Assembly: GCA_020440605.1 (NCBI GenBank)
Contig: JAGRNT010000007.1
Span: forward strand, 55,083-119,082
From: a bacterium
GTDB lineage: Bacteria > 4484-113 > JAFGCY01
Direction of reading: 5' to 3'
DNA: 64,000 nucleotides
In this document: one piece after another, positions 54 to 46,744 of the stretch
How positions within the stretch are numbered: position 1 is the stretch's first letter
Layout of the letters: each line of letters opens with the position of its first letter
Notes under the pieces: model-generated
Seen by the model: the letters and a program-made list of their open reading frames with translations, nothing else
What the model was told of the DNA's origin: nothing
Databases searched by the model: none
Translations under genes and position numbers: made by a program

Positions 54-752
54 ATGTCAGAGCTGTTCCACAGTCCCGCTGAGCTGAAGCGCATGGCCGC
101 TGCAGCCGCGCTCACGGCCGTACCGAGCAACTGCAGGCTCGGCCTGGGCAGCGGCAGCACCGCTGAGATCTTCGTGGAAGAGCTTGCAGTCCGGGTCCGC
201 CAGGGTCTGCAGGTACGTTGCTGCGCCACCTCTGAGCGCACGGCACGCCTGGCAAGAAGCAAGGGAATCGAGGTTGCGGGCCTTGATGCCTTCGAGGGAC
301 TGGACCTGACCGTGGACGGCGCTGACGAGATCGATCCGCAGCTCAACCTGATCAAGGGGGGCGGAGCCTGCCACCTGCGTGAGAAGGTCGTGGCGGCTTT
401 CAGTGCAAGACTGATCATCATCGCCGATGACAGCAAGTTGGTTGACAGCCTCGGAGCCTTCCGCATCCCGCTCGAGGTGATTCCCTTCGCCCTGCCACTG
501 GTGCTGCGTGAGGTCTCGGGCCTGCCGGGCTGCCGGAGCTGCTTGCAGCGCCGCAGCGAGAGTGCTCCCGTGCTGACTGACGAAGGCAATCTGGTGCTGG
601 ACGCCGACTTCGGCCTGCTAACCGACCCGGGCAGCCTCGCGATCCGGCTCAGTGACGTGCCGGGCATCGTCGAACACGGGCTGTTCGTCGGCATGGCTGA
701 GACAGCATTCATCGGAACGCAGGACGGGGTGCGGATCCTCGAGCGCGCTTAG
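54..752 (+). CDS. rpiA: ribose-5-phosphate isomerase A
   Basis: 232 aa; GLGSGST, DGADE and KGGGA motifs typical of RpiA; stop overlaps stop of convergent gene. Confidence 0.85.
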   Translation: MSELFHSPAELKRMAAAAALTAVPSNCRLGLGSGSTAEIFVEELAVRVRQGLQVRCCATSERTARLARSKGIEVAGLDAFEGLDLTVDGADEIDPQLNLIKGGGACHLREKVVAAFSARLIIIADDSKLVDSLGAFRIPLEVIPFALPLVLREVSGLPGCRSCLQRRSESAPVLTDEGNLVLDADFGLLTDPGSLAIRLSDVPGIVEHGLFVGMAETAFIGTQDGVRILERA

Positions 753-3700
753 AACTGCAGCACGGTCACCTTGCCGCTGTCGTCAAATTCGGTGACCGTG
801 GCTTCCGTGCCATCCGCCCAGCGCACCGTCAGCTTCACGGGACTGCTGCCCTGCGGGATGCCGAAGTGCAGCGGTGCCAGCGAGCTGGAAAGGTATCCGC
901 TGCCGGCCTGCTGCTCGCGCAGCAGCAGCTCGCCACTGTCAAGTTCCAGAGTGGCCCGGCTGCCCACCGCCCAGCGGTTGCCGTCCCTGCCGACCAGATT
1001 CACGGAGAGACCGGTGCCGGACTGTTCCTGTGCATTGCGCCTGAGCATCACCGGGCTGGCGTATGACACGCTGACAAGCACCTCCAGCAGCCCGTCACCA
1101 TCACTGTCGAAGGCCTGCACGCCGCGGCCGTCGGTGAACAGGAAGATCCCGCTGCGGCCCGGCTCCACCGCGCTGAAGCCTCCGGAGCCCTTGCCGTCCA
1201 GCAGCTGGCCGTAACCTGCGTTCCAGCGACCGGTCTCAGGCTGGGTGGCGTAGTAGTTGTCAACCTGCAGCAGATCGATGTCTCCGTCATTGTTAAGGTC
1301 GCCCGCCGCGCAGCCGAAGGCGATGCTGTACTGTGCCGCCAGCGGCAGCTGCTCCGCGCTGAATCCGCCCTTGCCGTCGTTGACCAGCAGCATGCTGGCC
1401 AGCTCAGTGGCATAGTAGTGTTCCTGGATCTCCTGGGGATCGCCGTAGATGTCGCTGAAGCTGGCATTGGCGAAGTCGTGCCATCTGGGGAAGCGTTCCG
1501 CCACGCGTTGCGGCATCGCATAACCGCTGCACGAACGTCCGCGGCCGGGCAGGAATTCCTGCTCACCCTTCTGCTTGGCCTCCACCAGGTGGCGCTTGCC
1601 GTCGCCGTTGAACTCGCCGGCGAACAGGGTCATCGCATGCTCGTTGTCAGCCTTGTACTTCGTATTCAGTCCCTGGTTGCCGGCCACGATGTCGAGGTCG
1701 CCGTCATTGTCGGTGTCCGCCACAGTGAGGCTGGTCCAGATGCCGTGCGGGGCGATGTCGATGCCCTCCTGCAGTTTGCCATCCACGTTGCGGAACAGGC
1801 GCACCGGGCCGTACTCATCGCAGGTCAGCAGGTCCTGCCAGCCGTCGTTGTCAAGGTCGGCGAAGCAGGCATCGCTGATGCAGCCGCTGATCCCGCCCGC
1901 TGGCAAGCTGCCGGCGCCATCCACGAAGTTCAGGTTGCCTTCGTTCAGCAGCAGCTCACTGGGCACCGGGCTCAGGTAGCGGTGCGGCTTCAGCCGGCCT
2001 GCGATGAAGACGTCAAGGTCCCCGTCCCTGTCTATGTCAGCGCTGCAGGCACTGCCTGACGAAACTTCTGAGGTGCTGATCCAGCCGCTCTGCATCCCTT
2101 CCTCTGTGTTGAGCACCAGCCAGTTGCGGTACAGGGTGGTGTCACCGCCGGCCTCGTTGCCACCGCCCGTCACCAGCATGTCCGGCCGGTCATCACCGTT
2201 GGCATCAAAGCAGAGCACGCCCATCTCCTCAACATCCGCGGGAATGCTGCCTTCCATCAGGGAGCTGGCGGCGAATCCGCCATCCGCTCCCATGTAGAGG
2301 CGTCCGGTCTGGCCGGCTGCTCCGGCGAAGTAGACGTCCAGTCTCCCATCGAGATCGAAGTCGGCAATCCCCAGCCCGCCGCCGAGCGTGCTGCGCTGCC
2401 AGGGCAGCAGCGGCTCCTCCTCGAACTCCTGCGCCAGGGTGTCGGCTTCCTTGCGCTGCCAGGCGAAGTCCTCACGGGTGTAGATCCCCTGCTGTGCAGG
2501 CGGGGCCCAGGCCTCCAGATCGTCACGGCGGCTGATCACATAGTGGCTGCCGCAGGGCAGGTCGCGCTCGACCTGCAGCTTGCCGTCGGGCCAGATGATC
2601 TCCAGCCGCGTCAGGCTGGTCTGCTCGCCGGTGCCGATGTGCACCCGTGCGCTCTCCGCGCTGGAGTAGCCGCGGGCCAGCGTCACTTCGCTGGCGATCA
2701 CCTTCGTGCCGGCGTAGGCCTTCAGTCTGGCGCCGACGGCCTGCCAGTTGCTGCCTGGCTGGCGCAGGTCTATCGTCAGGCGGTTGCCGCACTGCTTGTC
2801 ATTGCGCCACACGCCAAGCAAGTCATTCGTACGGTTGGTGATGATGTCCAGGTCGCCGTCGCCGTCGTAGTCCTGGATCGAGGTGCCACAGGAGATGCTC
2901 TCGCCCGTGATCCCCCAGTTGTCAGCCGGCTTCTTGTAATGCAGCGGCGTGTCGGCGGTGAACAGCACGTCCTGGCGGGGCAGGGTGCCGAAACTGAGTG
3001 CATGCTGCTGCAGCTCCTCGTCGCTCGCCCCGGCGGCCGACATTGCAGCAGCTTCGTTCATAGCGTCCACGTCCACGCTGAAGCGCATGGTGTAGCCATT
3101 GGTGGCGAACAGCTCCGGAGTACTGGAGCAGTTCAGGTCGGCGATCCGGCAGCTCCAGGTCCATTCGCTGGCCTTCACTCCGGCCAGCTCGGCAACTTCG
3201 CTCATCCAGCCGAATCCACGGTTGAGGAACAGGCAGTTGCGCATGTTCTGCTGGGGCATGAAGCTGATCAGTTCCTGGCGGTACTGGTACATGTCCCCGC
3301 TCTGGATCTTGCCGTCCTTGTAATCAGCTGCCGCCATGTCGCCGACGAAGATGTCCAGCAGACCGTCGCCATCGAGATCGCCGTGGTCAGCCCCCATCGA
3401 GAAGTAGGGTGTACGCCTGAGCATCGTGCGCGAGTGGTCAGTGAACTTTCCGTGGCCGTTGTTGATGTAGTAGTAGTCCTGGGTCTCCATGTCACCGGAG
3501 AGATAGAGGTCGGTGTAGCCGTCCTCGTTGTAGTCCCCCGCCAGCGCCATCAGCGTCCAGCCGATGTGATCCATGCCGGCGTCGGCGATACCGTTGTCAA
3601 AGTGACCGGTGCCGTCATTGATCAGCAGCTGGTCGTCGTCGGGCCTGACCCGGGCCTTGTTGAGTTCGTCGAAGTAGTAGTATTCGGCGGCCTCACCGGT

Positions 3701-4429
3701 CATGATGTAGCGGCCGGTGTTCTGGTCGATGCGGAAGCTGCCCTGGATGTCCGTATCCATCTGGCTGGCCATGCTCTCCCGGCCCATGCGGTTGTTGGCG
3801 ACATACAGATCGAGATCCCCGTCGCGTTCGATGTCGATTGCGGCCACGGTCACGCAGGTGTTGCCGACGGATGCTCCCCGGGCCTCGCTTTCGTCGGTGA
3901 ATCCGCCGCTGCCGTCGCCCATGAACAGGCGGTTGCCGCTGCCACGCGTGAAGACGTAGAGATCAAGGCTGCCGTCTCCGTCCACATCCACGAACATCGC
4001 GCCTGAGCAGTACTCACCATCGAGGGCCAGGTCAGCGCCGGCTCCGGCAGTTGCATCGCTGAAACGGAAACCGCCCTCGTTGCGGTAGAGCCGGTTGGGC
4101 TGCTCAATCCCCGCCACGTAGATATCCAGGTCTCCGTCGTTGTCAAAGTCACCACTGGCGAGCCCGGCCTGGGCTGCGATCTGGTCCAGCAGGACCTGCG
4201 GGTTGCTGACGTTGTTGTCAAACTCCAGCCCGGTCTCGCTCGAGGCCAGCGCCACGAAGGAGTCAGCCGACACGTCAGCAGTGCTGAATGGAGTGGCCTG
4301 GATGTGACTGTCTCCGCCATGCATGCCCGCCTTGCCGGTGCCGCCTTCAGCAGTCTTCGTGTTGTCGGTGCAGGAGGCAAGGCACAGCAGTGCGAGTGCT
4401 GCGAGGGCCAGGGTGCTCAGTGTGTTCAT
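749..4429 (-). CDS. CRTAC1-family lipoprotein with FG-GAP/VCBS repeats and two ASPIC/UnbV domains
   Basis: 1226 aa; signal peptide with lipobox LCLASC; many DxDGDGxxD FG-GAP-like repeats; two C-terminal-type ASPIC/UnbV beta-sandwich segments (internal tandem duplication of the module). Confidence 0.8.
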   Translation of the reverse strand: MNTLSTLALAALALLCLASCTDNTKTAEGGTGKAGMHGGDSHIQATPFSTADVSADSFVALASSETGLEFDNNVSNPQVLLDQIAAQAGLASGDFDNDGDLDIYVAGIEQPNRLYRNEGGFRFSDATAGAGADLALDGEYCSGAMFVDVDGDGSLDLYVFTRGSGNRLFMGDGSGGFTDESEARGASVGNTCVTVAAIDIERDGDLDLYVANNRMGRESMASQMDTDIQGSFRIDQNTGRYIMTGEAAEYYYFDELNKARVRPDDDQLLINDGTGHFDNGIADAGMDHIGWTLMALAGDYNEDGYTDLYLSGDMETQDYYYINNGHGKFTDHSRTMLRRTPYFSMGADHGDLDGDGLLDIFVGDMAAADYKDGKIQSGDMYQYRQELISFMPQQNMRNCLFLNRGFGWMSEVAELAGVKASEWTWSCRIADLNCSSTPELFATNGYTMRFSVDVDAMNEAAAMSAAGASDEELQQHALSFGTLPRQDVLFTADTPLHYKKPADNWGITGESISCGTSIQDYDGDGDLDIITNRTNDLLGVWRNDKQCGNRLTIDLRQPGSNWQAVGARLKAYAGTKVIASEVTLARGYSSAESARVHIGTGEQTSLTRLEIIWPDGKLQVERDLPCGSHYVISRRDDLEAWAPPAQQGIYTREDFAWQRKEADTLAQEFEEEPLLPWQRSTLGGGLGIADFDLDGRLDVYFAGAAGQTGRLYMGADGGFAASSLMEGSIPADVEEMGVLCFDANGDDRPDMLVTGGGNEAGGDTTLYRNWLVLNTEEGMQSGWISTSEVSSGSACSADIDRDGDLDVFIAGRLKPHRYLSPVPSELLLNEGNLNFVDGAGSLPAGGISGCISDACFADLDNDGWQDLLTCDEYGPVRLFRNVDGKLQEGIDIAPHGIWTSLTVADTDNDGDLDIVAGNQGLNTKYKADNEHAMTLFAGEFNGDGKRHLVEAKQKGEQEFLPGRGRSCSGYAMPQRVAERFPRWHDFANASFSDIYGDPQEIQEHYYATELASMLLVNDGKGGFSAEQLPLAAQYSIAFGCAAGDLNNDGDIDLLQVDNYYATQPETGRWNAGYGQLLDGKGSGGFSAVEPGRSGIFLFTDGRGVQAFDSDGDGLLEVLVSVSYASPVMLRRNAQEQSGTGLSVNLVGRDGNRWAVGSRATLELDSGELLLREQQAGSGYLSSSLAPLHFGIPQGSSPVKLTVRWADGTEATVTEFDDSGKVTVLQF

Positions 4430-4560
4430 CCGCAGTAACCTTCCTCGGACGCATGGCGCGAGCGTGTCCGCGCTGGTCTAGCGTCCACTGCAGATTATAG
4501 GGGAGGCGGGCCGCCCTCCATGGCTGCCGCCCAGTCTCAATTGCCACGGGCGAATCCGCC

Positions 4561-4719
4561 TCAGCAGCAATCGGAACCACTGCAGCAGGACTCTCCGCAG
4601 TTCAGCGTGATGCTGACATTGGCGCAGCCGCAGCTGCTGCCCTCGGCAGGATGGATGTTCAGCGTGCAGCTGCCGTTCCCGTTGTCAATGCACTGAGCGC
4701 TCAGATTCACGTTCTGCAT
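4561..4719 (-). CDS. small Cys-rich peptide (52 aa, 9 Cys), candidate metallothionein-like protein
   Basis: ATG preceded by GAGGTG RBS; sequence MQNVNLSAQCIDNGNGSCTLNIHPAEGSSCGCANVSITLNCGESCCSGSDCC; immediately downstream of ArsR/SmtB gene on same strand; below the 60-aa cutoff of the ORF track. Confidence 0.45.
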   Translation of the reverse strand: MQNVNLSAQCIDNGNGSCTLNIHPAEGSSCGCANVSITLNCGESCCSGSDCC

Positions 4720-4767
4720 GTTCGTCACCTCATGTAATTAGACTATTAGAGAAGAATAGAAATAAAT

Positions 4768-4784
4768 CCGCAAAAAAAATGCGG
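4768..4784 (-). terminator. weak hairpin (CCGCA-T8-TGCGG) plus U-rich tract directly after arsR-family stop
   Basis: inverted repeat seen in sequence followed by AT-rich tract; possible partial terminator/attenuator between regulator and Cys-rich ORF. Confidence 0.3.
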
Positions 4785-5123
4785 CTAGATGCCGCAGACC
4801 TTCGGGTCAAAGAAGTCAGCCAGTTCCTGGATGGTCTGGGGATCAACCCAGCAGACGATCTTCTGCCCCTGACGCTCGGTGCGGATCAGTCCGGCGCGCT
4901 TCAGTTCCCGCAGATGATGCGAGACGGTGGAGGCGGCGACATCCAGCTTCTGGCAGATGTCTCCGACACAGACACAGGCCTCCCGGTCGGTCACGAACAC
5001 CGTGCCGGGGGTACAGCAGTTGGTCAGCATGCGGAAGATCTTCAGGCGGTTGATGTTGGACAGAGCCTGGAACATCTCCACCAGCTCTTCACTTCGATCG
5101 ATTTCTGTTAGAACTTTCGACAT
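4785..5123 (-). CDS. ArsR/SmtB family metalloregulatory transcriptional repressor
   Basis: 112 aa winged HTH (VSHHLRELKRAGLI) with Cys clusters (NCCTPG, CVCVGDIC) at positions typical of metal-sensing sites. Confidence 0.8.
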   Translation of the reverse strand: MSKVLTEIDRSEELVEMFQALSNINRLKIFRMLTNCCTPGTVFVTDREACVCVGDICQKLDVAASTVSHHLRELKRAGLIRTERQGQKIVCWVDPQTIQELADFFDPKVCGI

Positions 5124-5130
5124 CGCTCGA

Positions 5131-5159
5131 ATTATAACGCATTCTCAGAGTAGTTTCAA
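5131..5159 (-). promoter_or_regulatory. sigma70-like promoter TTGAAA-N17-TATAAT ending 7 nt before arsR-family ATG (leaderless or near-leaderless)
   Basis: perfect TATAAT at 5131-5136 (minus), TTGAAA at 5154-5159, 17-bp spacer; TTCGA-N6-TCGAA inverted repeat overlaps start codon. Confidence 0.4.
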
Positions 5160-5329
5160 GTCAGAATTGTGGGAACGGGGAAATGGAGCTGAGCCGTGAA
5201 GCGTGATCAATTCCAGCACGGACTCGCTGCCCCTCTGCGGTTCAAATGGGAAAGGCATTCCGCATGGAGAGCTGTATGTCACACACGATACACACCATGC
5301 TCTCCAGCTGGATGATACCGGAGCATGCA

Positions 5330-7252
5330 TCACCAGCCGCGGCCGCCACCGCCGCCGCCACCTCCACCGCTGAATCCGCCCCCGCCTGAGCTGGAGCCAC
5401 CGCTGAAGCCACTGCCTGAACTGCTACCCCAGGAGCCGCTGGATGTACTGCCTCCGCCCCAGCCTCCACCTGATGATCCGCTGGAGGGAGGTGGAGGTGG
5501 CGGCAGTGAGGCCCTGCGGTAGACCCGGCTCAAGTTGCGGGGCAGATGCCGCGCCAGCCGGCTGTAATCGAGGTCCTGCGGCGAGAGATACTCCCGCGCG
5601 GGATCCGCATACCAGCCCGGAGCGCCGGCTTTGTAATGCTCGGGACGCAGATGCTGCAGCAGGATGCTCCACTGCGTATTCACGCCGAGCGCCACGGCGT
5701 AGGGCAGGTACTGTTCGCTGAGCACTTCGTCAGCGTATTCATACTGCCCGAGGCTGTCCTCGCCGCCGGTCATGGCCAGCCGGAAGCCCTCGATGCGGTC
5801 CAGCACGGCGCGCCCCAGTTCGCTGTAGGCCGGCAGCAGTGCATAGAACAGGAAGTTCAGCACGAACAGGGCCAGCAGCAGCAGGAAGAAATCCGCAGCC
5901 GAGAAGAAGAACAGTCCGAGCGCAAGGCAGACCAGCCAGATCCCGAAGCCGCTGACACTCAATACAATCCCTGTCTGGCGCTGTCGCTCATTCATTTCAT
6001 AGTAGACATGATGCAGTTCATGCACCAGCGAACTCTCAACGGCTCGCGTGGCACTGCGGAAACGGTGGTGGTTCTTGCTGTCGAGGGTGATCTGCTTGTA
6101 CTTTCCGCGGTAGATCGCCTCGATGAAGGCCCGCTCCTCGGGACGCAGGCCGGCGACCCCGTCGCGCAGGCGATGCAGCTTCCAGGCGCCATGGTGATGA
6201 TGCTCGATGCGCAGCACTCCGTTCTGCGCCAGCTCAAGGATCAGCGCGGTCATCAGGGTTTCGTCCACATCCAGCTTCCAGATGTAGCGCAGGCTGGCGG
6301 CACTGAGGCCGATCAGTGGACGTTCCTCACGCAGCACCAGCCCTTCGTGGGGATCGCGCCCGACGCGGATCCAGCTTGCCAGGTAGTAGATCCCGACGAT
6401 TGCCAGAATCAGCAGGCCGAGCGCCCAGCCGCCGTTGCTCTCCAGCCACCAGCGCAGGCGCAGCGTCGCTGGTGGTTCGGCGATGATGCCCTTCGGGAAG
6501 CCGGCCACGACCGTCAGTCCTTCGGAGGGTGCCAGGGGGCGCGTTGTCCGGAACAGCAGACCCTTGTCAAGCTGCTCCACCGCGTAGTCCCGGCCCAGAC
6601 TGCCATAGGGCCCCGTGTAGGCCTCACTGTGCAGCTGCTCAGGCGGGACGCTCTCCGGCAGCAGCACCCGGCAGCTCATTTCGTCGATGCCGAAGGCCCA
6701 GGAATTGCCGTTGACATTCCAGTAGAGTTCGTCGTGTTCGCTGAAGCGTCCGATCTGGCGCTGCATGCGGTAGCTGATCGCGTATACGTGCACACCGTGA
6801 TCGAGGAAACGGGCGGGACTGCCGATGCGCAGGCCCACGCCGTTCTTCAGGGCGTATTCCATGAACTCGGCGGGCTCGCCATCCTGGCTGACCGAGATGC
6901 GGTCCATGGGCACCAGCACCCTGCGCCCGCCGGAGCGGTAGATCGTGGGGATCTCGCGGATGATCCCGCGCTGGATCTCATTGCCGAGCACGAGCACGCT
7001 GATCCGCTCCGTGACCTCGATCGCGCCGTCCGGTTTGATCTGAACGGTGCTGTCAAACGAGAGTACTCGCTCGGGACCCGCAGGGACTGCCGCTTGCCCT
7101 TCCTCCCAGTTCTCCTGGAGCAGGTTGTCAAACAGCGCTCTGACTTCCGGACCTGGGTCGTATGGTGGATCAGGCACACTGCGCGGGGATTCAGCCTGCG
7201 CTGAGCAGGGCAGCAGCAGGGCCAGCAGGAGGCACAGCAGGCAGCGCATCAC
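5330..7252 (-). CDS. DUF2207-family membrane protein with C-terminal poly-Gly/Ser tail
   Basis: 640 aa; signal peptide, extracellular domain, TM segments, C-terminal GGGGFSGGGGGGGGGRGW tail; paralog of adjacent gene. Confidence 0.65.
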   Translation of the reverse strand: MMRCLLCLLLALLLPCSAQAESPRSVPDPPYDPGPEVRALFDNLLQENWEEGQAAVPAGPERVLSFDSTVQIKPDGAIEVTERISVLVLGNEIQRGIIREIPTIYRSGGRRVLVPMDRISVSQDGEPAEFMEYALKNGVGLRIGSPARFLDHGVHVYAISYRMQRQIGRFSEHDELYWNVNGNSWAFGIDEMSCRVLLPESVPPEQLHSEAYTGPYGSLGRDYAVEQLDKGLLFRTTRPLAPSEGLTVVAGFPKGIIAEPPATLRLRWWLESNGGWALGLLILAIVGIYYLASWIRVGRDPHEGLVLREERPLIGLSAASLRYIWKLDVDETLMTALILELAQNGVLRIEHHHHGAWKLHRLRDGVAGLRPEERAFIEAIYRGKYKQITLDSKNHHRFRSATRAVESSLVHELHHVYYEMNERQRQTGIVLSVSGFGIWLVCLALGLFFFSAADFFLLLLALFVLNFLFYALLPAYSELGRAVLDRIEGFRLAMTGGEDSLGQYEYADEVLSEQYLPYAVALGVNTQWSILLQHLRPEHYKAGAPGWYADPAREYLSPQDLDYSRLARHLPRNLSRVYRRASLPPPPPPSSGSSGGGWGGGSTSSGSWGSSSGSGFSGGSSSGGGGFSGGGGGGGGGRGW

Positions 7253-8994
7253 CAGCCGCTGCCTCCACCACCGCCGCCTCCGCCGCCGCTGAAGCCACCA
7301 CCGCCCCCGCCACTGCTGCTGCTCGGCGGTGTGGCGCTGTGGCTCACGGAACTGTTGAAGCTGCGCGGCATGTCGTCACTGAAGCCGCCGAAGTCAAAGG
7401 CATTGCCATGCATGTAGCGGCTGCCGCTGTATCCGCGGTACCAGCCCGGGGCTTCGACGCGCTCGCCACGGGACTGCAGCACGCGTCCGAACTGTTCGCC
7501 CCATTCCTTGTTGACATCCAGGGCCACGGCATGCGCCAGGTAGCGCTCAGAGAGCACGGTGTCGGCGTAGACGTAACCGCCGAGTGAATCCTCACCACCG
7601 AGCATTGCCAGCCTGAAGCCCTCGATGCGGTCCAGCACCGCGCGGCCCAGCTGGGTGTAGCTGGGCAGCAGCGCGCTGAAGATCCCCATCAGGATGATCA
7701 GCAGGATCGCCGTTGTCACGAGTATGACGTAGTTCGGGAGAATGATGTAGGTCGCGCTCAGCAGCCAGTAGATCATGAAGCCGATGATGCAGAACCACAT
7801 CCCGCGCCCCACATAGCTGGAGTTGCGCTCGTAGTAGACGTGGTGGTGCTCACGGTTGAGCTGCTCGCCGATGGCGCTCAGGGCCGCCGAGACCTTGGCA
7901 TAGTTGTCCTTGTCAATCTCGAACTTCTTCGTGCGACCGCTGAAGATCTTGTCCATGAAGATCCGTTCCTCGGGAAGGAGATCTCCATCCGTGACCTGCG
8001 TGCGCTCGATGCGGTACTTGCCCTTGCCGTACTCATGGATGATGATCCAGCCCTTCTGCGCGAGCTGGATCATGACCGCGCTCAGCAGGCCGCTGTCAGC
8101 GCTCATCTGCCAGATGTAGCGCAGGGCCGCAGGCGAGAGCCCGATCAGCGGGGTCTCCTCACGGATCACGAGCCCCTCGAGCGGGTCGCGGCCCACGCGC
8201 CACCAGAGCACCATGTAGTAGATGAAGCAGATGCCCAGCAGCAGCAGCGAGCCCGCCCAGAAGCCGTTGTCGGCAATCCACCAGCGCAGGCGACTCTGCG
8301 GAGTATCGAGCATCACCTGGCCGCGGGGGAAGCCGGCCACGATCGTCATGCCTTCATGGATACTCAGCGGACGTGTGCTTTCGTAGACAACCCGGCCCAG
8401 TTCCTCCACGCGGCTGACATAATCCTGGCCCGTGGCACCATAGACACCGGTGTAGCCATCCATGTCAATGCGGGAAGGCGCGATGTCATCGGGCAGCAGC
8501 ACGGTGGCCTTCACCTTGTCAATGCTGAAGGTCCAGTGGTTGCCGGTCACGTTCCAGTACAGTTCGTCGTGGTCGGCATATCTGCGCACCTGGCGCGGAG
8601 CGCTGTAGCGGATGGTGTAGACATGCTCACCCTGGGAGACTATGCGGTCCGCACTGCCGATGCGGATGCGCGTGGCTCCGCCTTCATGCTCGACCTTGAA
8701 TTCCTCGGGCACTCCGTCAAGGCGGATCTCCTTGACGCGCAGCGGTACGCGCACGGGACGCAGCATCCCGTGACGGATCGGGATGTCACGCAGGATGCCG
8801 TGGCGGATGGACTGGTTGCGCACGTTGAAGCGGATGTTCTCTGTGACGTCCACGCTGCTGTCGGCATTGATGCGGATCTCGGCCTCGTAGAGCAGGATCC
8901 GCTCCCAGAGGTCGGACTGGCTGACCGCCGATCCCGGCAGCAGGCAGACCACGAGGGCACACAACAGGCTCAGCAGGCGCAGGGAGCTTCGCAC
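7249..8994 (-). CDS. DUF2207-family membrane protein, paralog
   Basis: 581 aa; same architecture and C-terminal GGGGGGFSGGGGGGGGGSGW tail; stop overlaps downstream paralog start (4-nt overlap). Confidence 0.65.
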   Translation of the reverse strand: MRSSLRLLSLLCALVVCLLPGSAVSQSDLWERILLYEAEIRINADSSVDVTENIRFNVRNQSIRHGILRDIPIRHGMLRPVRVPLRVKEIRLDGVPEEFKVEHEGGATRIRIGSADRIVSQGEHVYTIRYSAPRQVRRYADHDELYWNVTGNHWTFSIDKVKATVLLPDDIAPSRIDMDGYTGVYGATGQDYVSRVEELGRVVYESTRPLSIHEGMTIVAGFPRGQVMLDTPQSRLRWWIADNGFWAGSLLLLGICFIYYMVLWWRVGRDPLEGLVIREETPLIGLSPAALRYIWQMSADSGLLSAVMIQLAQKGWIIIHEYGKGKYRIERTQVTDGDLLPEERIFMDKIFSGRTKKFEIDKDNYAKVSAALSAIGEQLNREHHHVYYERNSSYVGRGMWFCIIGFMIYWLLSATYIILPNYVILVTTAILLIILMGIFSALLPSYTQLGRAVLDRIEGFRLAMLGGEDSLGGYVYADTVLSERYLAHAVALDVNKEWGEQFGRVLQSRGERVEAPGWYRGYSGSRYMHGNAFDFGGFSDDMPRSFNSSVSHSATPPSSSSGGGGGGFSGGGGGGGGGSGW

Positions 8995-39274: not shown

Positions 39275-40193
39275 TCTTGCTCCTTTGCGTGCCGAGAGTG
39301 CGGGCGAAGATGCTCAGCATCAGGACTGCACTGGTGATCAGCAGGGCACCGACCCAGGCCAGGCGCTGCCATTCCTCGTAGGGACTCATTGCGTACTGGA
39401 AGATCACCACCGGCAGGTTGGCAAGCGGGTGGTTCAGCTCCAGGCTCCAGAACTGGTTGTTGAGCGCGGTGAACAGCAGCGGGGCGGTCTCACCGCTGAT
39501 CCTGGCAACAGCCAGCAGCACACCGGTGATGATCCCGGCCCGGGCGGCCCGGTAGGCCACGTGGCGGATCACCAGCGAGCGCGGCATGCCGAGTGCTGAG
39601 GCCGCCTCGCGCAGGTGCACCGGCACCAGGTTCAGCATGTCCTCGGTGGTGCGGACCACAACCGGGATCACGATGATCGCCAGCGCTACGGCTCCGGCCA
39701 GGCCGGAGAAGTGTCCGCCGAGCTCCACGTTGATGGCACCGCCGAACAGGTTGCCGGGCATCGGGATGGCGAACTCGATGTGCGGGGCCACGAGGATCGT
39801 GTAGACGAACAGGCCGATTACGATGCTCGGAGCACTCAGCAGGATGTCATTGATGAAGCGCACGAAGGTTGTCAGCTTCGAGTTGCGGCCGTACTCCGCC
39901 ATGTAGGTGCCGGCCAGGATGCCGATCGGTGTACCCATCAGCGTGCCGAGCACCGTCATGAACAGGCTGCCGACGATGGCATTCAGCAGGCCGCCGGAAT
40001 CACCGGGTGGCGGGGTCATCTCGGTGAAGACCTTCAGCTCGACGCCGGTTACACCTTCGAACAGGAGAGTGCCGAGGATCAGGGCCAGCCACATCAGGCC
40101 GATACCGGCGGCGGCGACACAGAGGGTCATCATCACCGAGTTGCGCAGCTTGCGGCTGGCGTAGAGGCGCATGTCCATATTGACAGCTGACAT
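39267..40193 (-). CDS. pstA: phosphate ABC transporter permease PstA
   Basis: 6-TM permease; operon position; overlaps pstB start. Confidence 0.85.
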
Positions 40194-41188
40194 CAGTTTC
40201 CCAGCCTCCGCTCAATCCGCATCAGCATCAGGCGGGCAGCCGCCAGCACGATGAAGGTGATCACGAACAGGATGAAGCCCAGCGCGAACAGGGTGCTGGA
40301 GTACAGTCCGGGGTCGGCCTCGGTGAACTCATTGGCAATGGTCGCCGAGATCGTGGTGCCGGGATCGAGGAATGACGGGTTGATGCGGTGCGCGTTGCCG
40401 ATCACGAAGGTGACGGCCATGGTCTCACCGAGCGCACGGCCCAGTGCCAGCATCCCGCCGCCGATCACGCCGACGCGGGTATGCGGGATCACCACCTTGC
40501 GCACGACCTCCCAGGTGGTGCAGCCCAGTCCGTAGGCGGCTTCCTTCAGCACGGCCGGGACGGTCTCGAATACGTCGCGGCTGACGGAGCTGATGAAGGG
40601 GATGATCATGATAGAGAGGATCAGCGAGGCGGTAAGCACGTTTGTCCCGTAGGAGCCGTTGGCGAATAGGGCGTTGAGCAGCGGGATCGGTGCAAAGAAC
40701 TTCACCAGTGCGGGGTTGACATGCTCCGCAAGGAAGGGGGCGAAGATGAACAGGCCCCAGATACCGTAGATGATGCTCGGCACGCCGGCCAGCAGCTCGA
40801 CTGCGATGCCGATCGGCTTGCGCAGCGCCATCGGGCAGGTCTCGGTCAGGAAGATCGCAATCCCGAGCCCGATCGGCATGGCGATTGCCATGGCGATCAG
40901 CGAGGTGATCAGGGTTCCGTAGATCGCCGGCAGTCCGCCGAAGATCTCTTTGGGCGGGCTCCAGCGCTGGCTGACGAAGAATTCCCAGCCATATGCCTGG
41001 AAGGCCGGCAGGGCACCGCGGAACAGCGCGACCATCACTCCCGTGAGAATGATGACCACGGTCCAGCAGGCGATCAGGGTGGTGAGTGAGAATGCGCGGT
41101 CTCCCTTGGCAAAGCCGCGCAGGACCCTGCTGCGCTGCTCAGTCAGTTTCGCCGCATCCAGGCCCACATTTAGCATGGTTCCAGACAT
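40193..41188 (-). CDS. pstC: phosphate ABC transporter permease PstC
   Basis: operon position; GGAAGG RBS before ATG at 41188. Confidence 0.85.
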
Positions 41189-41342
41189 CTGCCTTCCGTT
41201 GCTTGTCCTCGCCGTCGCCGGCGGGCGGGGTGCGGCTTCCAGACATTTAATTCCTGGTTGAGCCGGCTGCTGATATTGAATCAAACCAGTATGAAGATAA
41301 TGTGAAGATTGCCGTCGGATTGCGTAAATGCTAAAAGGACTC

Positions 41343-41378
41343 CCCCCGCCGTTAAGCGGGAGAAGTCCTCCATACGTC
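41343..41378 (-). terminator. imperfect hairpin + U-tract between pstS-1 and pstC (partial terminator/attenuator)
   Basis: GGACTTCTCCCGC-TTAA-CGGCGGGGGGAGTCC then TTTT on minus strand. Confidence 0.4.
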
Positions 41379-41398
41379 TAGGGGTAGCTGTGTTGGGG

Positions 41399-42601
41399 TC
41401 AGACGAGCGGCTGGCCGTTCTCGCCCTTGATCTCGCCGGCCCACATCGCCTCAACGCTCTCCACCACGGAGCTGGGCATCGGGATGTAGTCGAGGCCGAG
41501 AGCTTCCTCGCTGCCGTACTCGAAGGCCCACTTGAAGAACTTCAGGGCCTCTGCGGAAGCGGCATCATCCTCGGGGCTCTTGTACATCAGGATGAAGGTG
41601 GCGGCGGTCATCGGCCAGGTGGAGTCGCCGGGCTGGTTGGCGAGGATCACACCGTAACCGGGAACGCTGTTCCAGTCAGCGCTGGCGGCTGCGGCGGCGA
41701 AGGCATCGGCATCGGGGCTGACGGTTTTGCCGGCCTTGTTGATCATGTTGCAGTGCGTCATGCTGTTCTGCTTGGCGTAGGCGTACTCGACGTAGCCGAT
41801 GCTGAACTTGGCGCCAGCCACGTTCTGGGCAACGCCCTCGTTGCCCTTGGCACCGATGCCGACCGGCCACTCGACGGCCTTGTCAACACCGACCTCGTTC
41901 CTCCAGGCCTCGCTGACCTCGGCCAGGTAGTAGGTGAAGTTGTAGGTCGTACCGGAACCGTCGGAGCGGGTGACCACGTTGATGCTGGCATCGGGCAGCG
42001 TCACGCCGGCATTGAGGGCGGCGATCGCCGGGTCGTTCCAGTTGCTGATCTTGCCCATGAAGATGTCAGCGAGTGTCGTGCCGTCCAGGGTGATCTGGCC
42101 TGCAGTGATTCCGTCGAGATTGATGACGGGGACGATGCCGCCCATCACCATCGGCCACTGCACGAGGCCGCTCTCCGTAAGCTCCTCACCGCTGAGCGGG
42201 GCATCGGTGGCGCCGAAGGTCACGGTTTTGGCCTTGATCTGCTTGATGCCGCCGCCGGAACCGATGGACTGGTAGTTCAGGCCCACGCCTGTTTCCTTCT
42301 GGTAGCTGTCAGCCCATTTGGAATAGATCGGATACGGGAAGGTGGCTCCGGCACCGGCGATCTGGCCCACACCGCCCGCGGAGGAAGTATCGCCTGCGGT
42401 CGTGTCGGCAGCGGAGCTGTCGGTGCTGGTGCTGCTGTTGTCCGCTATGCTGGAAGAGCTGGAGCTGCTGCTGTCGGTTGACGTGCTGTCAGTCTCGGAC
42501 GGGCAACCCGTCGCAAACGCGGCGAGGATGGCAACCGTGGCCAGCAGGGCCAGCGCCCGGAGCGGGAAGATGGTGTTCAGGATCATGCCTGTGCGATTCA
42601 T
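41399..42601 (-). CDS. pstS: phosphate-binding lipoprotein PstS (copy 1) with Ser/Thr-rich linker
   Basis: GGAGG RBS, lipobox FATGC, then 40-aa S/T/D-rich linker, then GAGATFPYPIYSKWADSYQ PstS fold. Confidence 0.85.
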   Translation of the reverse strand: MNRTGMILNTIFPLRALALLATVAILAAFATGCPSETDSTSTDSSSSSSSSIADNSSTSTDSSAADTTAGDTSSAGGVGQIAGAGATFPYPIYSKWADSYQKETGVGLNYQSIGSGGGIKQIKAKTVTFGATDAPLSGEELTESGLVQWPMVMGGIVPVINLDGITAGQITLDGTTLADIFMGKISNWNDPAIAALNAGVTLPDASINVVTRSDGSGTTYNFTYYLAEVSEAWRNEVGVDKAVEWPVGIGAKGNEGVAQNVAGAKFSIGYVEYAYAKQNSMTHCNMINKAGKTVSPDADAFAAAAASADWNSVPGYGVILANQPGDSTWPMTAATFILMYKSPEDDAASAEALKFFKWAFEYGSEEALGLDYIPMPSSVVESVEAMWAGEIKGENGQPLV

Positions 42602-42644
42602 TGTTATACCTCCGTTATAGGCAGGGAGAATGTACTGAGGCCGT

Positions 42645-42671
42645 GTGTGAATTTCGTGAAGATAACGTGAA
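42645..42671 (-). promoter_or_regulatory. Pho-box-like triple direct repeat TTCAC-N6-TTCAC-N4-TTCACA upstream of pstS-1
   Basis: GTGAA at 42647, 42656, 42667 (spacing 9 and 11), 46 nt upstream of ATG. Confidence 0.5.
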
Positions 42672-42770
42672 TCCACATGAATTCTTGACAAATCAGCTGC
42701 ATTGGCAACTCTGTGGATTGCCGGACTCCCGGCTCACGGGACAGCTGCATCACCGTCCGGGCTTGCCTGC

Positions 42771-42819
42771 AAAATGCAGAGGCTCCCCCGCAGGCAACTT
42801 GCACCTTCGGGAGAGCCTC
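42771..42819 (-). terminator. hairpin + U-tract after pstS-2
   Basis: GAGGCTCTCCCG...CGGGGGAGCCTC stem then TGCATTTT. Confidence 0.4.
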
Positions 42820-42839
42820 ATCTGGTCGAAGCCTGGGGC

Positions 42840-43925
42840 TTAGATCAGCGGCTTGCCGTTGGCACCCTTGATCTCCTTGGACCACATCGCCTCGACACTG
42901 TCCACAACGGACTTCGGCATCGGGATGTAGTCCAGGCCGAGCGCCTCGGTGTCACCCATCTCAAAGGCCCACTTGAAGAACTTCAGGGCCTGGGTGGAAG
43001 CGGCGTCATCCTCGGGGCTCTTGTACATCAGGATGAAGGTGGCGGCGGTCATCGGCCAGGTGGAATCGCCGGGCTGGTTGGCGAGGATCACACCGTAACC
43101 GGGCACGCTGCTCCAGTCAGCACTGGCGGCGGCGGCGGCAAAGGCATCGGCATCGGGGCTGACGGCCTTGCCGGCCTTGTTGATCATCTTGGTATACGTC
43201 AGACCGTTCTGCTTGGCATAGGCATACTCGACGTAACCGATGCTGTTCTTGGCGCCGGCCACGTTCTGGGCCACGCCCTCGTTGCCCTTGGCACCGATGC
43301 CGACCGGCCACTCGACGGCCTTGTCAACGCCGATCTCGCTCTTCCACGTGCTGCTGACATCAGCCAGGTAGTAGGTGAAGTTGTAGGTGGTGCCGGAACC
43401 GTCGGAGCGGGTGACCACGTTGATGCTCGTGCTCGGCAGGCTGACGCCGCCGTTGAGCTTGGCAATCGCGGGATCGTTCCACTTGGTGATCTTGCCCATG
43501 AAGATGTTGGCAAGCGTGCTGCCATCCAGCACGAGCTGGCCGGGCTTGACACCCTCCACGTTGATGACGGGGACGATGCCGCCCATCACCATCGGCCACT
43601 GCACGAGGCCGGACTCGCTGAGTTCCTGGCCGCTGAGCGGGGCGTCGGTGGCACCGAAGGTCACGGTCTTGGCCTTGATCTGCTTGATGCCGCCGCCGGA
43701 ACCGATGGACTGGTAGTTCAGACCGATACCGGTTTCCTTCTGGTAGCTGTCAGCCCACTTGGAATAGATCGGATACGGGAAGGTCGCTCCCGCGCCGGCG
43801 ATCTGCTCGGCTGCGCTGGCGGGCGTGCCGCGGAAACCGGCAGCCAGGGCAGCGAGAATGACAACTCCGGTGAAGACCAGCATGGCCTTCAGCGGATTAC
43901 TGTTCAGGTTCTTACCTGTGCGCAT
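42840..43925 (-). CDS. pstS: phosphate-binding protein PstS (copy 2)
   Basis: GGAGG RBS; signal peptide; no S/T linker; ~85% identical mature domain to copy 1. Confidence 0.85.
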   Translation of the reverse strand: MRTGKNLNSNPLKAMLVFTGVVILAALAAGFRGTPASAAEQIAGAGATFPYPIYSKWADSYQKETGIGLNYQSIGSGGGIKQIKAKTVTFGATDAPLSGQELSESGLVQWPMVMGGIVPVINVEGVKPGQLVLDGSTLANIFMGKITKWNDPAIAKLNGGVSLPSTSINVVTRSDGSGTTYNFTYYLADVSSTWKSEIGVDKAVEWPVGIGAKGNEGVAQNVAGAKNSIGYVEYAYAKQNGLTYTKMINKAGKAVSPDADAFAAAAASADWSSVPGYGVILANQPGDSTWPMTAATFILMYKSPEDDAASTQALKFFKWAFEMGDTEALGLDYIPMPKSVVDSVEAMWSKEIKGANGKPLI

Positions 43926-43969
43926 TGTTATACCTCCGTTATAGGCAGGGAAAATGTACTCAGGCAGTA

Positions 43970-43995
43970 TGTGAATCAAGTGAAGGACAGGTGAA
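43970..43995 (-). promoter_or_regulatory. Pho-box-like triple direct repeat upstream of pstS-2
   Basis: GTGAA at 43971, 43980, 43991 (spacing 9 and 11), 46 nt upstream of ATG; leader duplicated from pstS-1. Confidence 0.5.
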
Positions 43996-44027
43996 CCCGG
44001 GTAATTTACTGGGGAAACGGCTGGTTG

Positions 44028-45818
44028 TCAGTTTCCCCGCAGTTCGGAAGGGAAGCTCAGAATGAACTCAGAACCCTCTCCGGGACTGCTCTTGATGCGC
44101 ACCTCACCGCCGTGGGCAATCATCACGTGCTTGACGATCGCGAGCCCGAGCCCGGTGCCGCCGAGCTGGCGGGAGCGCGCCTTGTCAACGCGGTAGAAGC
44201 GCTCGAAGATCCTGGCGTGGTGTTCCTCGGGAATGCCGAGCCCGTAGTCGCGCACGCTGATGAAGGGGCTGCTGCCCTCCAGACCGACCCGGACCTCCAC
44301 AAGCTGCCGGCTGCCGGCGTACTTGATGGCATTGTCCACGAGGTTGCCGATGGCCAGCAGCAGGTTCTCCTGGTCGCCCATCACGCGGATCGGCTGATCA
44401 GGAAGGCTGAGCCGGATCTCCACCCCCGCTGATTCACTCTTGGCCGAGCAGTTGTCAATGGCCAGACGGGCTGTCGAGGCGAGATCCAGCGGCTCGTCCT
44501 CCCGCTCATGGAAGCCGTGCTCCACGCGCGAGAGTGAGAGCATGTCGTTAACGAGCCCGCTCAGGCGCAGTGACTCATCGAGGATACTGCCCATGAATCG
44601 GTCGCGCACCGCATGCTCCATCTCCGGGTCGCTGATGATGGTCTCCGCCAGGCCGCGGATCGCGGTCACAGGGCTCTTCAGTTCATGGCTGGCATTGGCA
44701 ATGAACTGCGTGCGCATGTGCTCGAATTCATGCGTGCCGGTGATGTCGCGGATGATGCCAACCGCGCCGAGCACGCCTTCCGTGGCATCCCGCCAGGGAG
44801 TGACGATGATGCTGATCCAGCGGTTGCTGCCGGTGCCGACCAGTTCCAGCTCGCGCTGGATGGTGCTGCCGTTGCTGATCGCCGCCGAGAGGGCCTGTAC
44901 CAGTTCAGGCACCGTCAGGCATTCCCAGGCATGTCGCCCGGCGATGGCGTCATACTCCTGGCGGCAGTAGCCGGCAGCAACGCGGTTGACGTGCACGATG
45001 CGTTCCTGGCTGTCAACGGCGATCAGGCCCTCGCTCATGCTGGAAAGGATCGCCTCGAGCTGGCTGCGGTCGCGGGCGATCGTCAGCATCCGCTGGGCCA
45101 GGCTGTCTGACATGCTGTTGAGCATTTCCGCAAGCTGTCCGAGTTCATCATGGGTCATGACTTCCGCCCGCTTGCTGTAGTTGCCGCGGCTGATTCCACG
45201 GGCGACCTCCATCATGCGCGTCACCGGCCGGGTCACGCGGCGCGCGAACAGCAGGCCGAGCGGCAGGCTGACAAGCAGGGTGATCCCCGTACCCATCAGC
45301 ACGCTGAGACGCAGGGCGCTGAGCTGGTTGTCAATGTCACTGAGAGGCAGGGAGGTGCGCACATAGCCGGTCAGGCGACTGCCATCGTGCACCGCCACCG
45401 CGTAGTACATCATCCGCTCATGCACGCTGCGACTGAAGCGCCGGGACATACCGCTGCCGCTGCTGCCCGCGGCAAGCAGTTCGGGGCGGTTGGCATGGTT
45501 CTCCATCTCCGCTGCCGCCATATGCGAATCCGCCAGCACCACACCATCATCACGGATAACCGTGAAGCGCGTGGCAGTGGCCCGGCCGAGATCCTTGAGC
45601 TGGTCATCAAGCGCCGGCAGGGCTGCGCCAGCCTGCAGGCTGTCCTGGGCCATGGCTTCGAGCATCAGGCATTGCTGCTGCAGCGATCGCTCGATGCGCA
45701 GCAGTGAGTCTGCGGAGATCCGGAACTGGATCAGCAGTCCGACGGTCAGGGCGGTGAGCACGATCAGGATCGCGTACACCGAGTACAGCTTCCAGAAGAA
45801 CTGCGTACGCAGGGCCAT
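44028..45818 (-). CDS. phoR: phosphate regulon sensor histidine kinase PhoR
   Basis: TM-HAMP-PAS-HisKA (HELKSP)-HATPase_c; overlaps phoB stop. Confidence 0.85.
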   Translation of the reverse strand: MALRTQFFWKLYSVYAILIVLTALTVGLLIQFRISADSLLRIERSLQQQCLMLEAMAQDSLQAGAALPALDDQLKDLGRATATRFTVIRDDGVVLADSHMAAAEMENHANRPELLAAGSSGSGMSRRFSRSVHERMMYYAVAVHDGSRLTGYVRTSLPLSDIDNQLSALRLSVLMGTGITLLVSLPLGLLFARRVTRPVTRMMEVARGISRGNYSKRAEVMTHDELGQLAEMLNSMSDSLAQRMLTIARDRSQLEAILSSMSEGLIAVDSQERIVHVNRVAAGYCRQEYDAIAGRHAWECLTVPELVQALSAAISNGSTIQRELELVGTGSNRWISIIVTPWRDATEGVLGAVGIIRDITGTHEFEHMRTQFIANASHELKSPVTAIRGLAETIISDPEMEHAVRDRFMGSILDESLRLSGLVNDMLSLSRVEHGFHEREDEPLDLASTARLAIDNCSAKSESAGVEIRLSLPDQPIRVMGDQENLLLAIGNLVDNAIKYAGSRQLVEVRVGLEGSSPFISVRDYGLGIPEEHHARIFERFYRVDKARSRQLGGTGLGLAIVKHVMIAHGGEVRIKSSPGEGSEFILSFPSELRGN

Positions 45819-46510
45819 CAGTCCTCCCGGAAGCGGTATCCCACCCCGCGCACGGTTTCCACGAGCTCACGCTGTTCCCCCAGCTTCTTGCGGATCGACT
45901 TCACGTGCGTGTCAATGTTGCGTTCGATCACGATCCCGCCGCTGTTGCCCGTGAGCGAGAGGATTTCCTCGCGGCTGAAAACGCGGCCCGGACTGCGCAT
46001 TAGCAGGCTCATGATCTGGAACTCGGAGGGAGTGAGTTCCACCAGTTCATCCGCAACGTAGAAGCGGTGGCGCTCAGTATCTATCCGCAAGCCGCCGGCA
46101 TTGATCACGGTGCGGCTGCCGTCCTGGGCCTGGTGCAGGCGGCGCAGGCTGGCCTTGACGCGGGCCACGAGCTCGCGCGGGCTGAAGGGCTTGACGATGT
46201 AGTCGTCCGCACCGATTCCCAGGCCGAGCACTACGTCGGATTCCTCCGAACGCGCGGTGACCATCAGCACGGGAATATGGCGCAGCGAGATATCCGTCTT
46301 CAGGTTCTGGCAGATCTGGATGCCGTCCATGCCGGGCAGCATGATGTCCAGCAATGCCAGATCGGGCTTTTCGCGGCGGATCATGTCGATACCTTCGACA
46401 CCATCACGCGCTTCCAGCACGCGGTAGCCTTCACGGCGCAGGTTGTAGGAAATCACCTCGAGGATGTTGTTCTCATCCTCGACGACGGCGATGCGGTACT
46501 GTCTGCTCAT
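45818..46510 (-). CDS. phoB: phosphate regulon response regulator PhoB (OmpR family)
   Basis: receiver + winged helix (VRGVGYRF); AGGAAA RBS before ATG 46510. Confidence 0.85.
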   Translation of the reverse strand: MSRQYRIAVVEDENNILEVISYNLRREGYRVLEARDGVEGIDMIRREKPDLALLDIMLPGMDGIQICQNLKTDISLRHIPVLMVTARSEESDVVLGLGIGADDYIVKPFSPRELVARVKASLRRLHQAQDGSRTVINAGGLRIDTERHRFYVADELVELTPSEFQIMSLLMRSPGRVFSREEILSLTGNSGGIVIERNIDTHVKSIRKKLGEQRELVETVRGVGYRFRED

Positions 46511-46601
46511 TTCAGTTTCCTGTTGTGATTTGCCGGACAGGTGCCTATGATCCTGTTCGGACACTTTCGGGAAAATATGCAGACGGGGTATAACACCATT
46601 G

Positions 46602-46636
46602 ATTATACACAAGCCTGCCCCGGGGGCGGGGCAGGC
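46602..46636. promoter_or_regulatory. TGTATAAT -10 element (minus) abutted by perfect 10-bp-stem hairpin GCCTGCCCCG-GGG-GCGGGGCAGGC in phoB/HTH divergent region
   Basis: seen directly. Confidence 0.3.
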
Positions 46637-46744
46637 GCATTTCTTTTCGAACGTATCGCGGCTGAAATTCCTGAATACAGCCACTACGGCTAAATCCCGG
46701 TTCACTGCACGCTGGGTCCAGTTCCCTGTGTTTCAACTTAGGCA

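Follow-up and report, generated by a model that had tools for sequence, protein, structure and literature searches.

A conserved 52-residue cysteine-rich peptide gene paired with an arsM-type ArsR repressor in the UBP7-lineage, a candidate metal(loid)-binding unit

In cyanobacteria and pseudomonads, a repressor of the ArsR/SmtB family stands beside the gene of a cytosolic, cysteine-rich peptide of about 50 amino acids (aa), as in the SmtB-SmtA/BmtA systems. A likewise arranged pair is found in the 64,000-nt stretch of bacterial DNA analysed here (the window: positions 55,083 to 119,082 of contig JAGRNT010000007.1), where an open reading frame (ORF) of 52 codons, nine of them for Cys, follows an arsR gene on the same strand. 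The locus raises the question whether this ORF is a gene at all and, if so, whether its product serves as a metal-binding effector of the neighboring regulator. On comparative sequence evidence, the gene and its pairing with ArsR appear solid and a function of this kind is plausible. We propose that arsR and the peptide gene form a two-gene unit whose peptide may bind As(III) or another thiophilic metal or metalloid in the manner of a small metallothionein or metallochaperone, a proposal that we put forward tentatively and at a little less than an even chance. A metalloregulator accompanied by a Cys-rich binding peptide is a known kind of system (SmtB-SmtA); new here are the peptide family, its link to an ArsR of the type that accompanies the arsenite methyltransferase gene arsM, and its predicted beta-sheet scaffold.

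Coding evidence and composition of the peptide

The ORF translates to MQNVNLSAQCIDNGNGSCTLNIHPAEGSSCGCANVSITLNCGESCCSGSDCC, in which nine of the 52 residues are Cys (17%), spaced as C10-x7-C18-x11-C30-x-C32-x8-C41-x3-C45C46-x4-C51C52 with one CxC motif and two CC pairs. A preliminary description made from the sequence had reported such an ORF, with these cysteine motifs and a GAGGTG ribosome-binding site, directly downstream of ArsR; reading of the sequence bore this out except for the spacer between the arsR stop codon and the peptide ATG, which had been given as 62 nt and measures 65 nt. The same description had named the absence of the ORF from related genomes as one of the observations that would speak against it and had called for a comparison with metallothionein models. 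The ORF proved to be conserved, in nine variants all of which follow an orthologous ArsR, and the comparison with metallothionein models gave no match, the sequence searches returning only a small peptide family. Cys-richness alone is not beyond chance, because seven other small ORFs in the window (62% GC) reach at least 12% Cys and all of them are off-frame artefacts lying within genes. The case for the gene is made instead by its conservation across the nine variants, its open frame and its low ratio of nonsynonymous to synonymous substitution rates (dN/dS), and on these grounds we regard the ORF with high confidence as protein-coding.

A word-indexed protein search found only three clusters, the closest homologue being P0001 (83% identity; annotated by NCBI as 'hypothetical protein KDL29_11110'), and the small peptides P0002 and P0018 turned up when 1.84 billion representatives were scanned exhaustively with HMMER, a scan that enlarged the family by one distant member beyond the three clusters. 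The remaining HMMER matches were large repeat proteins sharing only the DNGDGT hairpin motif and were judged spurious. Further variants were obtained by fetching loci through the ArsR gene. A scan of metagenome contigs with the peptide profile gave no match and one with the ArsR profile gave one new locus (L023); a tblastn search of plasmids gave no match. The nine distinct variants are 51-52 aa long and 48-83% identical to the window peptide, and every one of them sits 56-66 nt 3' of the orthologous ArsR gene with an ATG and a Shine-Dalgarno sequence, which at this position reads GAGGTG or has a GGAG core (GGAGG, AGGAGC) in all lineages. The genomes with the pair include CP060262.1 (HK-STAS-UBP7_A-1), JAGRNR01 (UBP7 HKST-UBA01), JAWLAZ01 (AC1.30) and JAHEFU01 (Ww346), some records of the UBP7-lineage having been labelled Planctomycetales by their depositors. 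As far as these searches reach, the peptide family is small and restricted to this one uncultured lineage.

When eight loci were aligned, the peptide frame was the only one open in all of them. It also had the lowest pooled ratio of nonsynonymous to synonymous polymorphism (pN/pS), 0.43, compared with 1.2-1.4 in four other frames and 0.59 in the antisense frame -1; the antisense ORF in that last frame (4520-4696) was rejected on its higher pN/pS and on the stops found in four of the eight lineages. Pairwise dN/dS is 0.14-0.55 for the peptide and 0.02-0.09 for ArsR, values that indicate purifying selection on the peptide, more relaxed than on its neighbor. The Cys codons alternate between TGC and TGT among the loci, and the GC content at third codon positions (0.68-0.85) is similar to that of adjacent genes. 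Thirteen residues are invariant in the nine variants (C10, N13, G16, S17, C18, T19, G27, C30, C32, S36, C41, C51 and C52), so that seven of the nine cysteines are fixed, and the C45-C46 pair is present in eight variants. Rfam gave no match in window positions 4300-5400. An alternative GTG start at 4728 was rejected, being out of frame in L014 and falling within the Shine-Dalgarno sequence; NxS sequons resembling N-glycosylation sites were discarded as well, two of the three being lost in the closest homologue.

The window peptide has no Phe, Trp or Tyr, no signal peptide and no CxxC motif. Aromatic residues are missing from eight of the nine variants (that of L024 has one Tyr), and none of the nine contains CxxC, two knuckles of which characterize rubredoxins and zinc ribbons. 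In composition the peptide falls within the operational definition of a metallothionein, i.e., small, Cys-rich with CxC or CC, and with few or no aromatics. Pfam and NCBIfam scans of the window peptide and all nine variants gave no family match. An AlphaFold2 (AF2) model built from four sequences (mean predicted local distance difference test score 75.5) has three beta-strands (residues 6-12, 17-24 and 35-40) and a tail modelled with low confidence, in which five of the Cys lie. In a profile search of the PDB, residues 9-22 (QCIDNGNGSCTLNI) matched the filamin repeat hairpin CIDNKDGTCTV (E = 0.0011); both Cys positions of this filamin/Ig-type beta-hairpin are shared with the peptide, the likeness is at motif level only, and the search found nothing beyond this 14-residue motif. 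The spurious hits in large repeat proteins arose from the same motif. The product is predicted to be a real, cytosolic, thiolate-rich mini-protein of 52 residues.

The ArsR subfamily, its operator and the arsR-peptide junction

The upstream gene encodes a winged helix-turn-helix protein that scored above the curated thresholds of three ArsR/SmtB family models: NF033788 (69.6 bits, cutoff 55), PF01022 (41.5, cutoff 22) and PF12840 (44.3, cutoff 27). Its seven cysteines (C36, C37, C50, C52, C57, C91 and C110) lie in an 'NCCTPGTVF' loop insertion, in the sequence CVCVGDIC at helix alpha-3, in the wing (C91) and near the C-terminus (C110). The best matches in the PDB, CzrA and SmtB, reached only E ~1e-7 and are without the CCxPG insertion; aligned to these structures, the window ArsR shows 13 extra residues (NCCTPGTVF...CVC) ahead of helix alpha-3. 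More than 2000 relatives came out of a profile search at E < 1e-10, and 18 were aligned, 15 of them from outside the clade (47-61% identity); the aligned proteins share an invariant CC-x-PG loop after helix alpha-2 and an ECWVDP wing. We define here an arsM-linked 'CCxPG' subfamily of ArsR by this loop, the ECWVDP wing and an operator over the start codon, all three of which are found in the window ArsR. Relative to the wider subfamily, the ArsRs of the UBP7-lineage have gained extra Cys (C57 and a C-terminal C, CC or CCC).

Four of the five sampled ArsRs from outside the clade (L021 from Desulfatitalea, L026-31, L032-34 and L036) are encoded directly upstream of an arsenite methyltransferase ArsM, scoring 324-371 bits against NF008823 (cutoff 263). 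In the fifth case, L035, the next gene encodes an unrelated protein of 82 aa. This protein (3438-3686 in Desulfobacterales CP070668.1) contains no Cys, has no Pfam family on record and no NCBIfam match, and precedes two HSP20 genes; the ArsM of L026 (5392-6756) is a 454-aa fusion with a Cys-rich C-terminal C-GCAxxG-C-C domain (TIGR01909, 67.7 bits). Since the subfamily normally controls an arsenite methyltransferase, we infer by analogy that As(III) or a related thiophilic metalloid is a likelier ligand and inducer of the window ArsR than Zn. Several types of As(III) site are known in ArsR proteins, including type 1, the R773-like three-Cys site C-x-C-x2-C (ELCVCDLC) at helix alpha-3 (PMC11868830). 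In alignment, the CVC of the window ArsR falls on two of the three residues that ligate As(III) in R773 ArsR, and its third Cys is displaced, C50-V-C52-VGDI-C57 being C-x-C-x4-C. The hgcAB-linked ArsR2 of P. mercurii was considered as a member of the same subfamily and set aside, its Cys layout being different.

The -10 and -35 hexamers of the arsR promoter (Table 1) are conserved in all UBP7-lineage loci. The candidate operator shares one base, the last, with the -10 hexamer and also covers the arsR ATG; its pattern, TTCGA-N6-TCGAA, occurs once in the 64-kb window, at the arsR start. The distant homologues L021 and L026 have a perfect palindrome, TTCGACATATGTCGAA, over the start codon of arsR, and L026 has a variant of this palindrome, TTCGATATATGTCGAA, in front of arsM as well. 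UBP7-lineage loci have TTCGA(G/T)CGATGTCGAA at the same position over the arsR ATG. Only 7 nt separate TATAAT from the ATG, and arsR is therefore probably leaderless; it is probably also autoregulated through the candidate operator. In this layout one half of the palindromic operator TTCGAnnnATGTCGAA consists of the first three arsR codons (MSK or MSN), so that the N-terminus of the protein and the operator are written in the same DNA; the overlap of operator and start codon is conserved from the UBP7-lineage to Desulfatitalea (window 5116-5136, minus strand; L021 ~4960-4985; L026 ~4985-5010 and 5350-5375).

At the junction of the two genes, the arsR stop codon is overlapped by a hairpin which, with the eight T residues behind it, looks like an intrinsic terminator. 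It is predicted to fold stably in four lineages (-12 to -18 kcal/mol) and weakly in four more (-3.6 to -8.5 kcal/mol), and the T8 followed by G is invariant across lineages. Between this element and the peptide Shine-Dalgarno sequence lies an AT-rich block, TTCTAWTATTCTCTAAYnnTCTAAYT, which is present in all 21 UBP7-lineage loci covering the spacer and unique in the window (0 matches expected by chance). The block hardly varies among lineages with saturated synonymous sites and keeps a constant distance from the T8-G, with the TTG that closes the T-run and TCTAAY always spaced by 17 nt. It may be a weak TTGnnn-17-TCTAAY promoter, a protein-binding site or a translation leader; TCTAAY is without the critical A at position 2 of a -10 hexamer, and the promoter scan found no consensus sigma-70 promoter for the peptide. 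Expression of the peptide would depend either on read-through from the ArsR-controlled promoter or on a non-canonical element of its own. Upstream of arsR the region is variable: L014, L015 and L024 carry inserted lineage-specific ORFs of 129-144 aa there, and L001 carries one of 233 aa that runs on the other strand. Despite these insertions the arsR-peptide spacer retains its length and the conserved block, and a constant spacer next to a variable upstream region argues in favour of a tight arsR-peptide unit.

Table 1. Positions of the arsR-peptide locus features in the window
Feature	Position	Strand	Basis
Cys-rich peptide gene, 52 aa	4561..4719 (including stop)	-	ORF read from sequence; frame and dN/dS tests
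Shine-Dalgarno sequence GAGGTG	4726..4731	-	6 nt before the peptide ATG; sequence reading
AT-rich block TTCTAWTATTCTCTAAYnnTCTAA	4738..4761	-	Between T8 and the peptide Shine-Dalgarno sequence
Hairpin TGCGGC/GCCGCA overlapping the arsR stop, then T8 (terminator-like)	4772..4796	-	Terminator scan
ArsR/SmtB-family repressor, 112 aa	4785..5123	-	Pfam/NCBIfam matches; structure and subfamily alignments
Candidate ArsR operator, inverted repeat TTCGAGCGATGTCGAA	5116..5131	-	Motif search; comparison with homologues
Sigma-70-type arsR promoter, TTGAAA-17 nt-TATAAT (11/12 matches)	5131..5159	-	Promoter scan

Proposed function and its alternatives

The preliminary description had likened the pair to SmtB-SmtA, with a Cys-rich ArsR/SmtB regulator beside a peptide whose Cys spacing is not that of BmtA/SmtA and with no maturase nearby for a ribosomally synthesized and post-translationally modified peptide (RiPP). 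This holds in part: the regulator belongs to the family and is rich in Cys, it is paired with a real gene, the Cys spacing does differ from that of BmtA/SmtA metallothioneins, PF02069 (BmtA/SmtA) matches neither the window peptide nor a single one of the nine variants at E <= 1, and no RiPP maturase was found among the 34 window ORFs that were scanned with family libraries for ars genes and RiPP maturases. The part that has to be corrected is the kind of regulator, which is of the arsM-linked subfamily and not of the Zn-sensing SmtB/CzrA type. The likeness of the peptide to SmtA and BmtA is one of composition only (17% Cys, CxC and CC, no Phe, Trp or Tyr). The genes smtB and smtA are divergent, unlike the window arsR and peptide genes, which are co-directional with a hairpin between them.

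A closer parallel is offered by the arsR-arsM operons (L021, L026-31, L032-34 and L036), in which the regulators are homologous, a palindromic operator over the ATG of a leaderless arsR is a common feature, and the effector gene lies directly downstream on the same strand, as the peptide gene does here. The two differ in the downstream gene itself, a 52-aa Cys-rich peptide in the window and an S-adenosylmethionine-dependent arsenite methyltransferase of 266-454 aa in the operons, and in the second operator that L026 has before arsM, which has no counterpart before the peptide. By analogy the peptide would take the slot held by ArsM in these sister systems; derivation of the peptide from the N-terminus of ArsM was rejected (hhalign probability 0.3%). 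A third point of comparison is ArsD, which has vicinal Cys pairs near its C-terminus (CC...CC). These pairs, and the linkage to an ArsR-type regulator, recur in the peptide, which is less than half the size of ArsD and, according to the AF2 model, has a three-stranded sheet only and no thioredoxin-like fold; no Pfam or NCBIfam match of the peptide to ArsD (PF06953; thioredoxin-like fold, Cys12-Cys13-Cys18 site) was found.

In the proposed two-gene unit, an ArsR dimer bound to TTCGA-N6-TCGAA, across the -10 hexamer and the start codon of the leaderless arsR, would keep the unit off. A metalloid binding to the Cys-rich ArsR (the CC loop, CVC, C57, C91 and C110) would release the repressor from DNA, the near-consensus arsR promoter would fire, and part of the transcript would read through the hairpin and U8 into the peptide cistron; alternatively, the AT-rich block would act as a weak promoter of the peptide's own. 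The nine thiols of the peptide (CxC, CC and CC) would then bind and buffer the metalloid, accommodating up to three As(III) in S3 coordination. A more specific version of this proposal, that the arsR-arsM module of the UBP7-lineage exchanged its methyltransferase for a 52-residue 'arsenic thionein' with nine thiolates for up to three As(III) on a three-stranded beta scaffold, is possible but in our judgment doubtful.

A number of observations weigh against a metal(loid)-binding unit under ArsR control. Regulation of the peptide by ArsR is called into question chiefly by the junction: a terminator-like hairpin with T8 separates the two genes, and a search of the 64-kb window found no ArsR-type operator before the peptide. 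The nine loci all belong to a single narrow clade with full synteny of the region, and the conserved adjacency of arsR and the peptide gene is for that reason weak as independent evidence of coupling or function. Among the scanned window ORFs there are no ars transporter, reductase or methyltransferase genes, nor an arsA or arsB partner. No homology of the peptide to any metallothionein or to ArsD was found, the constraint on the peptide is more relaxed than that on ArsR, and the variant of L025 is without the C45-C46 pair and has C41-x-C43 instead.

Some of these observations would be expected if the peptide were real but independent of ArsR. It would then be a mini-protein with a structural metal or a redox role, a Zn or Fe-S knot or else a thiol/persulfide carrier; its gene would be transcribed from a separate promoter within the AT-rich block, and the adjacency to arsR would be inherited synteny and nothing more. 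The hairpin and T8 after arsR, the lack of an operator before the peptide, the invariant 17-nt spacing of TTG and TCTAAY, which fits a separate weak promoter, the synteny of the whole neighborhood, and an AF2 model with an ordered three-stranded sheet in place of a disordered metallothionein-like chain all point this way. We nevertheless consider such independence unlikely, if a serious contender, since the peptide has none of the CxxC knuckles typical of Zn ribbons, rubredoxins and thioredoxin-like redox sites, the hairpin is weak in half of the lineages, TCTAAY is without the key A at the second position of a -10 element, and the peptide stands in the exact slot of the regulated effector arsM of the sister systems. 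A different division of labor, in which the peptide is a partner of ArsR, either a mini-chaperone or anti-repressor passing the metalloid to it or an inducer buffer tuning the autoregulatory loop, has analogies in CopZ with CopY and in the vicinal Cys pairs of ArsD. It would account for a two-gene unit with no transporter or enzyme attached, for the extra Cys gained by the ArsRs of the UBP7-lineage, and for two C-terminal vicinal Cys pairs four residues apart that resemble the CC...CC of ArsD. The case is made quite improbable by the lack of any detected homology to ArsD or CopZ, by the variant of L025 with its missing pair, and by the absence of ArsR-peptide co-variation, as the ArsRs of the window and L017 are 99% identical and their peptides differ at 15 of 52 positions.

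Small size, richness in Cys, fast evolution within one lineage and a Cys-dense C-terminus are also what one might see in the precursor of a RiPP, in a bacteriocin-like peptide or in a disulfide-rich exported peptide, with the maturase and exporter encoded elsewhere in the genome. We give this a lower probability still: neither the scanned window ORFs nor the syntenic loci contain radical-SAM, LanM/LanB, YcaO, MNIO or ABC-peptidase genes, no SCIFF or other precursor model of NCBIfam matched the peptide, there is no signal or leader-like segment, and the conservation runs along the whole length, so that no split into leader and core can be drawn. Least probable of all, and to our mind nearly negligible, is the reading of the ORF as non-coding, open by chance where the DNA is GC-rich or else belonging to a non-coding regulatory region. 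The seven off-frame Cys-rich ORFs and the absence of a known domain would fit it, but nine diverged lineages keep the frame open at one and the same length, start codon and Shine-Dalgarno sequence are conserved, pN/pS is lowest in this frame, the Cys codons change synonymously, and Rfam has no match.

Few families of bacterial metallothionein-like peptides are known, and we know of none that is linked to an ArsR of the arsenic type. Should the peptide bind As(III), sequestration or chaperoning would join efflux, reduction and methylation among the functions controlled by ArsR, and a compact nine-thiol scaffold would be at hand for biosensing or bioremediation. According to a 2025 paper (PMC12093948), no intracellular sequestration gene is known within ars operons; if the peptide is an 'arsenic thionein', no ArsR-controlled arsenic unit would have been known before to encode a peptide for sequestration or chaperoning. 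The small size of the family and its confinement to one uncultured lineage limit its general reach. The peptide aside, the analysis defines a large arsM-linked subfamily of ArsR with the operator TTCGA-N6-TCGAA and an apparently leaderless, self-overlapping mode of autoregulation.

Gene neighborhood and other features of the window

The syntenic order in the clade is pyruvate kinase, two DUF2207 genes, ArsR, the peptide, an FG-GAP/ASPIC gene and RpiA. Besides these genes, the scanned ORFs include an extracytoplasmic function (ECF)-type sigma factor, YceI, two subtilases, a large PAS histidine kinase, an ATP-binding cassette (ABC) ATPase, Pst/Pho-type components and a photolyase. Along this region the window and L017 (metagenome-assembled genome AC1.30) are 93% identical in nucleotide sequence from the DUF2207 genes to the peptide and 81% identical in the FG-GAP gene, the change occurring at ~4488; their ArsRs differ by one residue and their peptides at 15 of 52 positions (dS 0.65 against 0.22), a contrast that hints at a breakpoint of recombination or at faster change in the peptide.

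The FG-GAP/ASPIC gene (749-4429, minus strand) is always next after the peptide in the clade and encodes a predicted lipoprotein of 1226 aa in which 11 FG-GAP_3 repeats and two ASPIC/UnbV domains are recognized; a TATAAT of its own precedes the gene, and there is no ArsR operator. The interval from the peptide stop codon to its ATG (4430-4535, minus strand) holds a GC-rich inverted repeat (GGAGGGCGGCCCGCCTCC in the window; GGCGGGAAG-N10-CTTCCCGCC in L024), then the invariant TATAAT, after which a leader of ~65 nt runs to a terminal AGGAAGG. This interval is conserved in eight UBP7-lineage loci, with 3-4 differences from L001 over ~100 nt, and the element could be a terminator of the peptide gene, an operator or a structured 5' untranslated region. 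A structured RNA 3' of the peptide was considered and rejected, RNAalifold support being weak (3 compensatory pairs) and Rfam giving no match.

On the other side of arsR, the two tandem DUF2207 membrane-protein paralogues (5330-7252 and 7249-8994, minus strand) have overlapping stop and start codons and long Gly/Ser-rich C-terminal tails ending in ...GGGGRGW and ...GGGGSGW, respectively. Farther away, a cluster at 40193-46705 (minus strand) combines a permease for binding-protein-dependent transport and two PBP_like_2 (PstS-like) binding proteins with a histidine kinase of PAS/HAMP type and a response regulator of OmpR type; phosphate (Pst) systems are the usual entry route for arsenate, and the cluster resembles a Pst/Pho phosphate system with no ArsR operator nearby.

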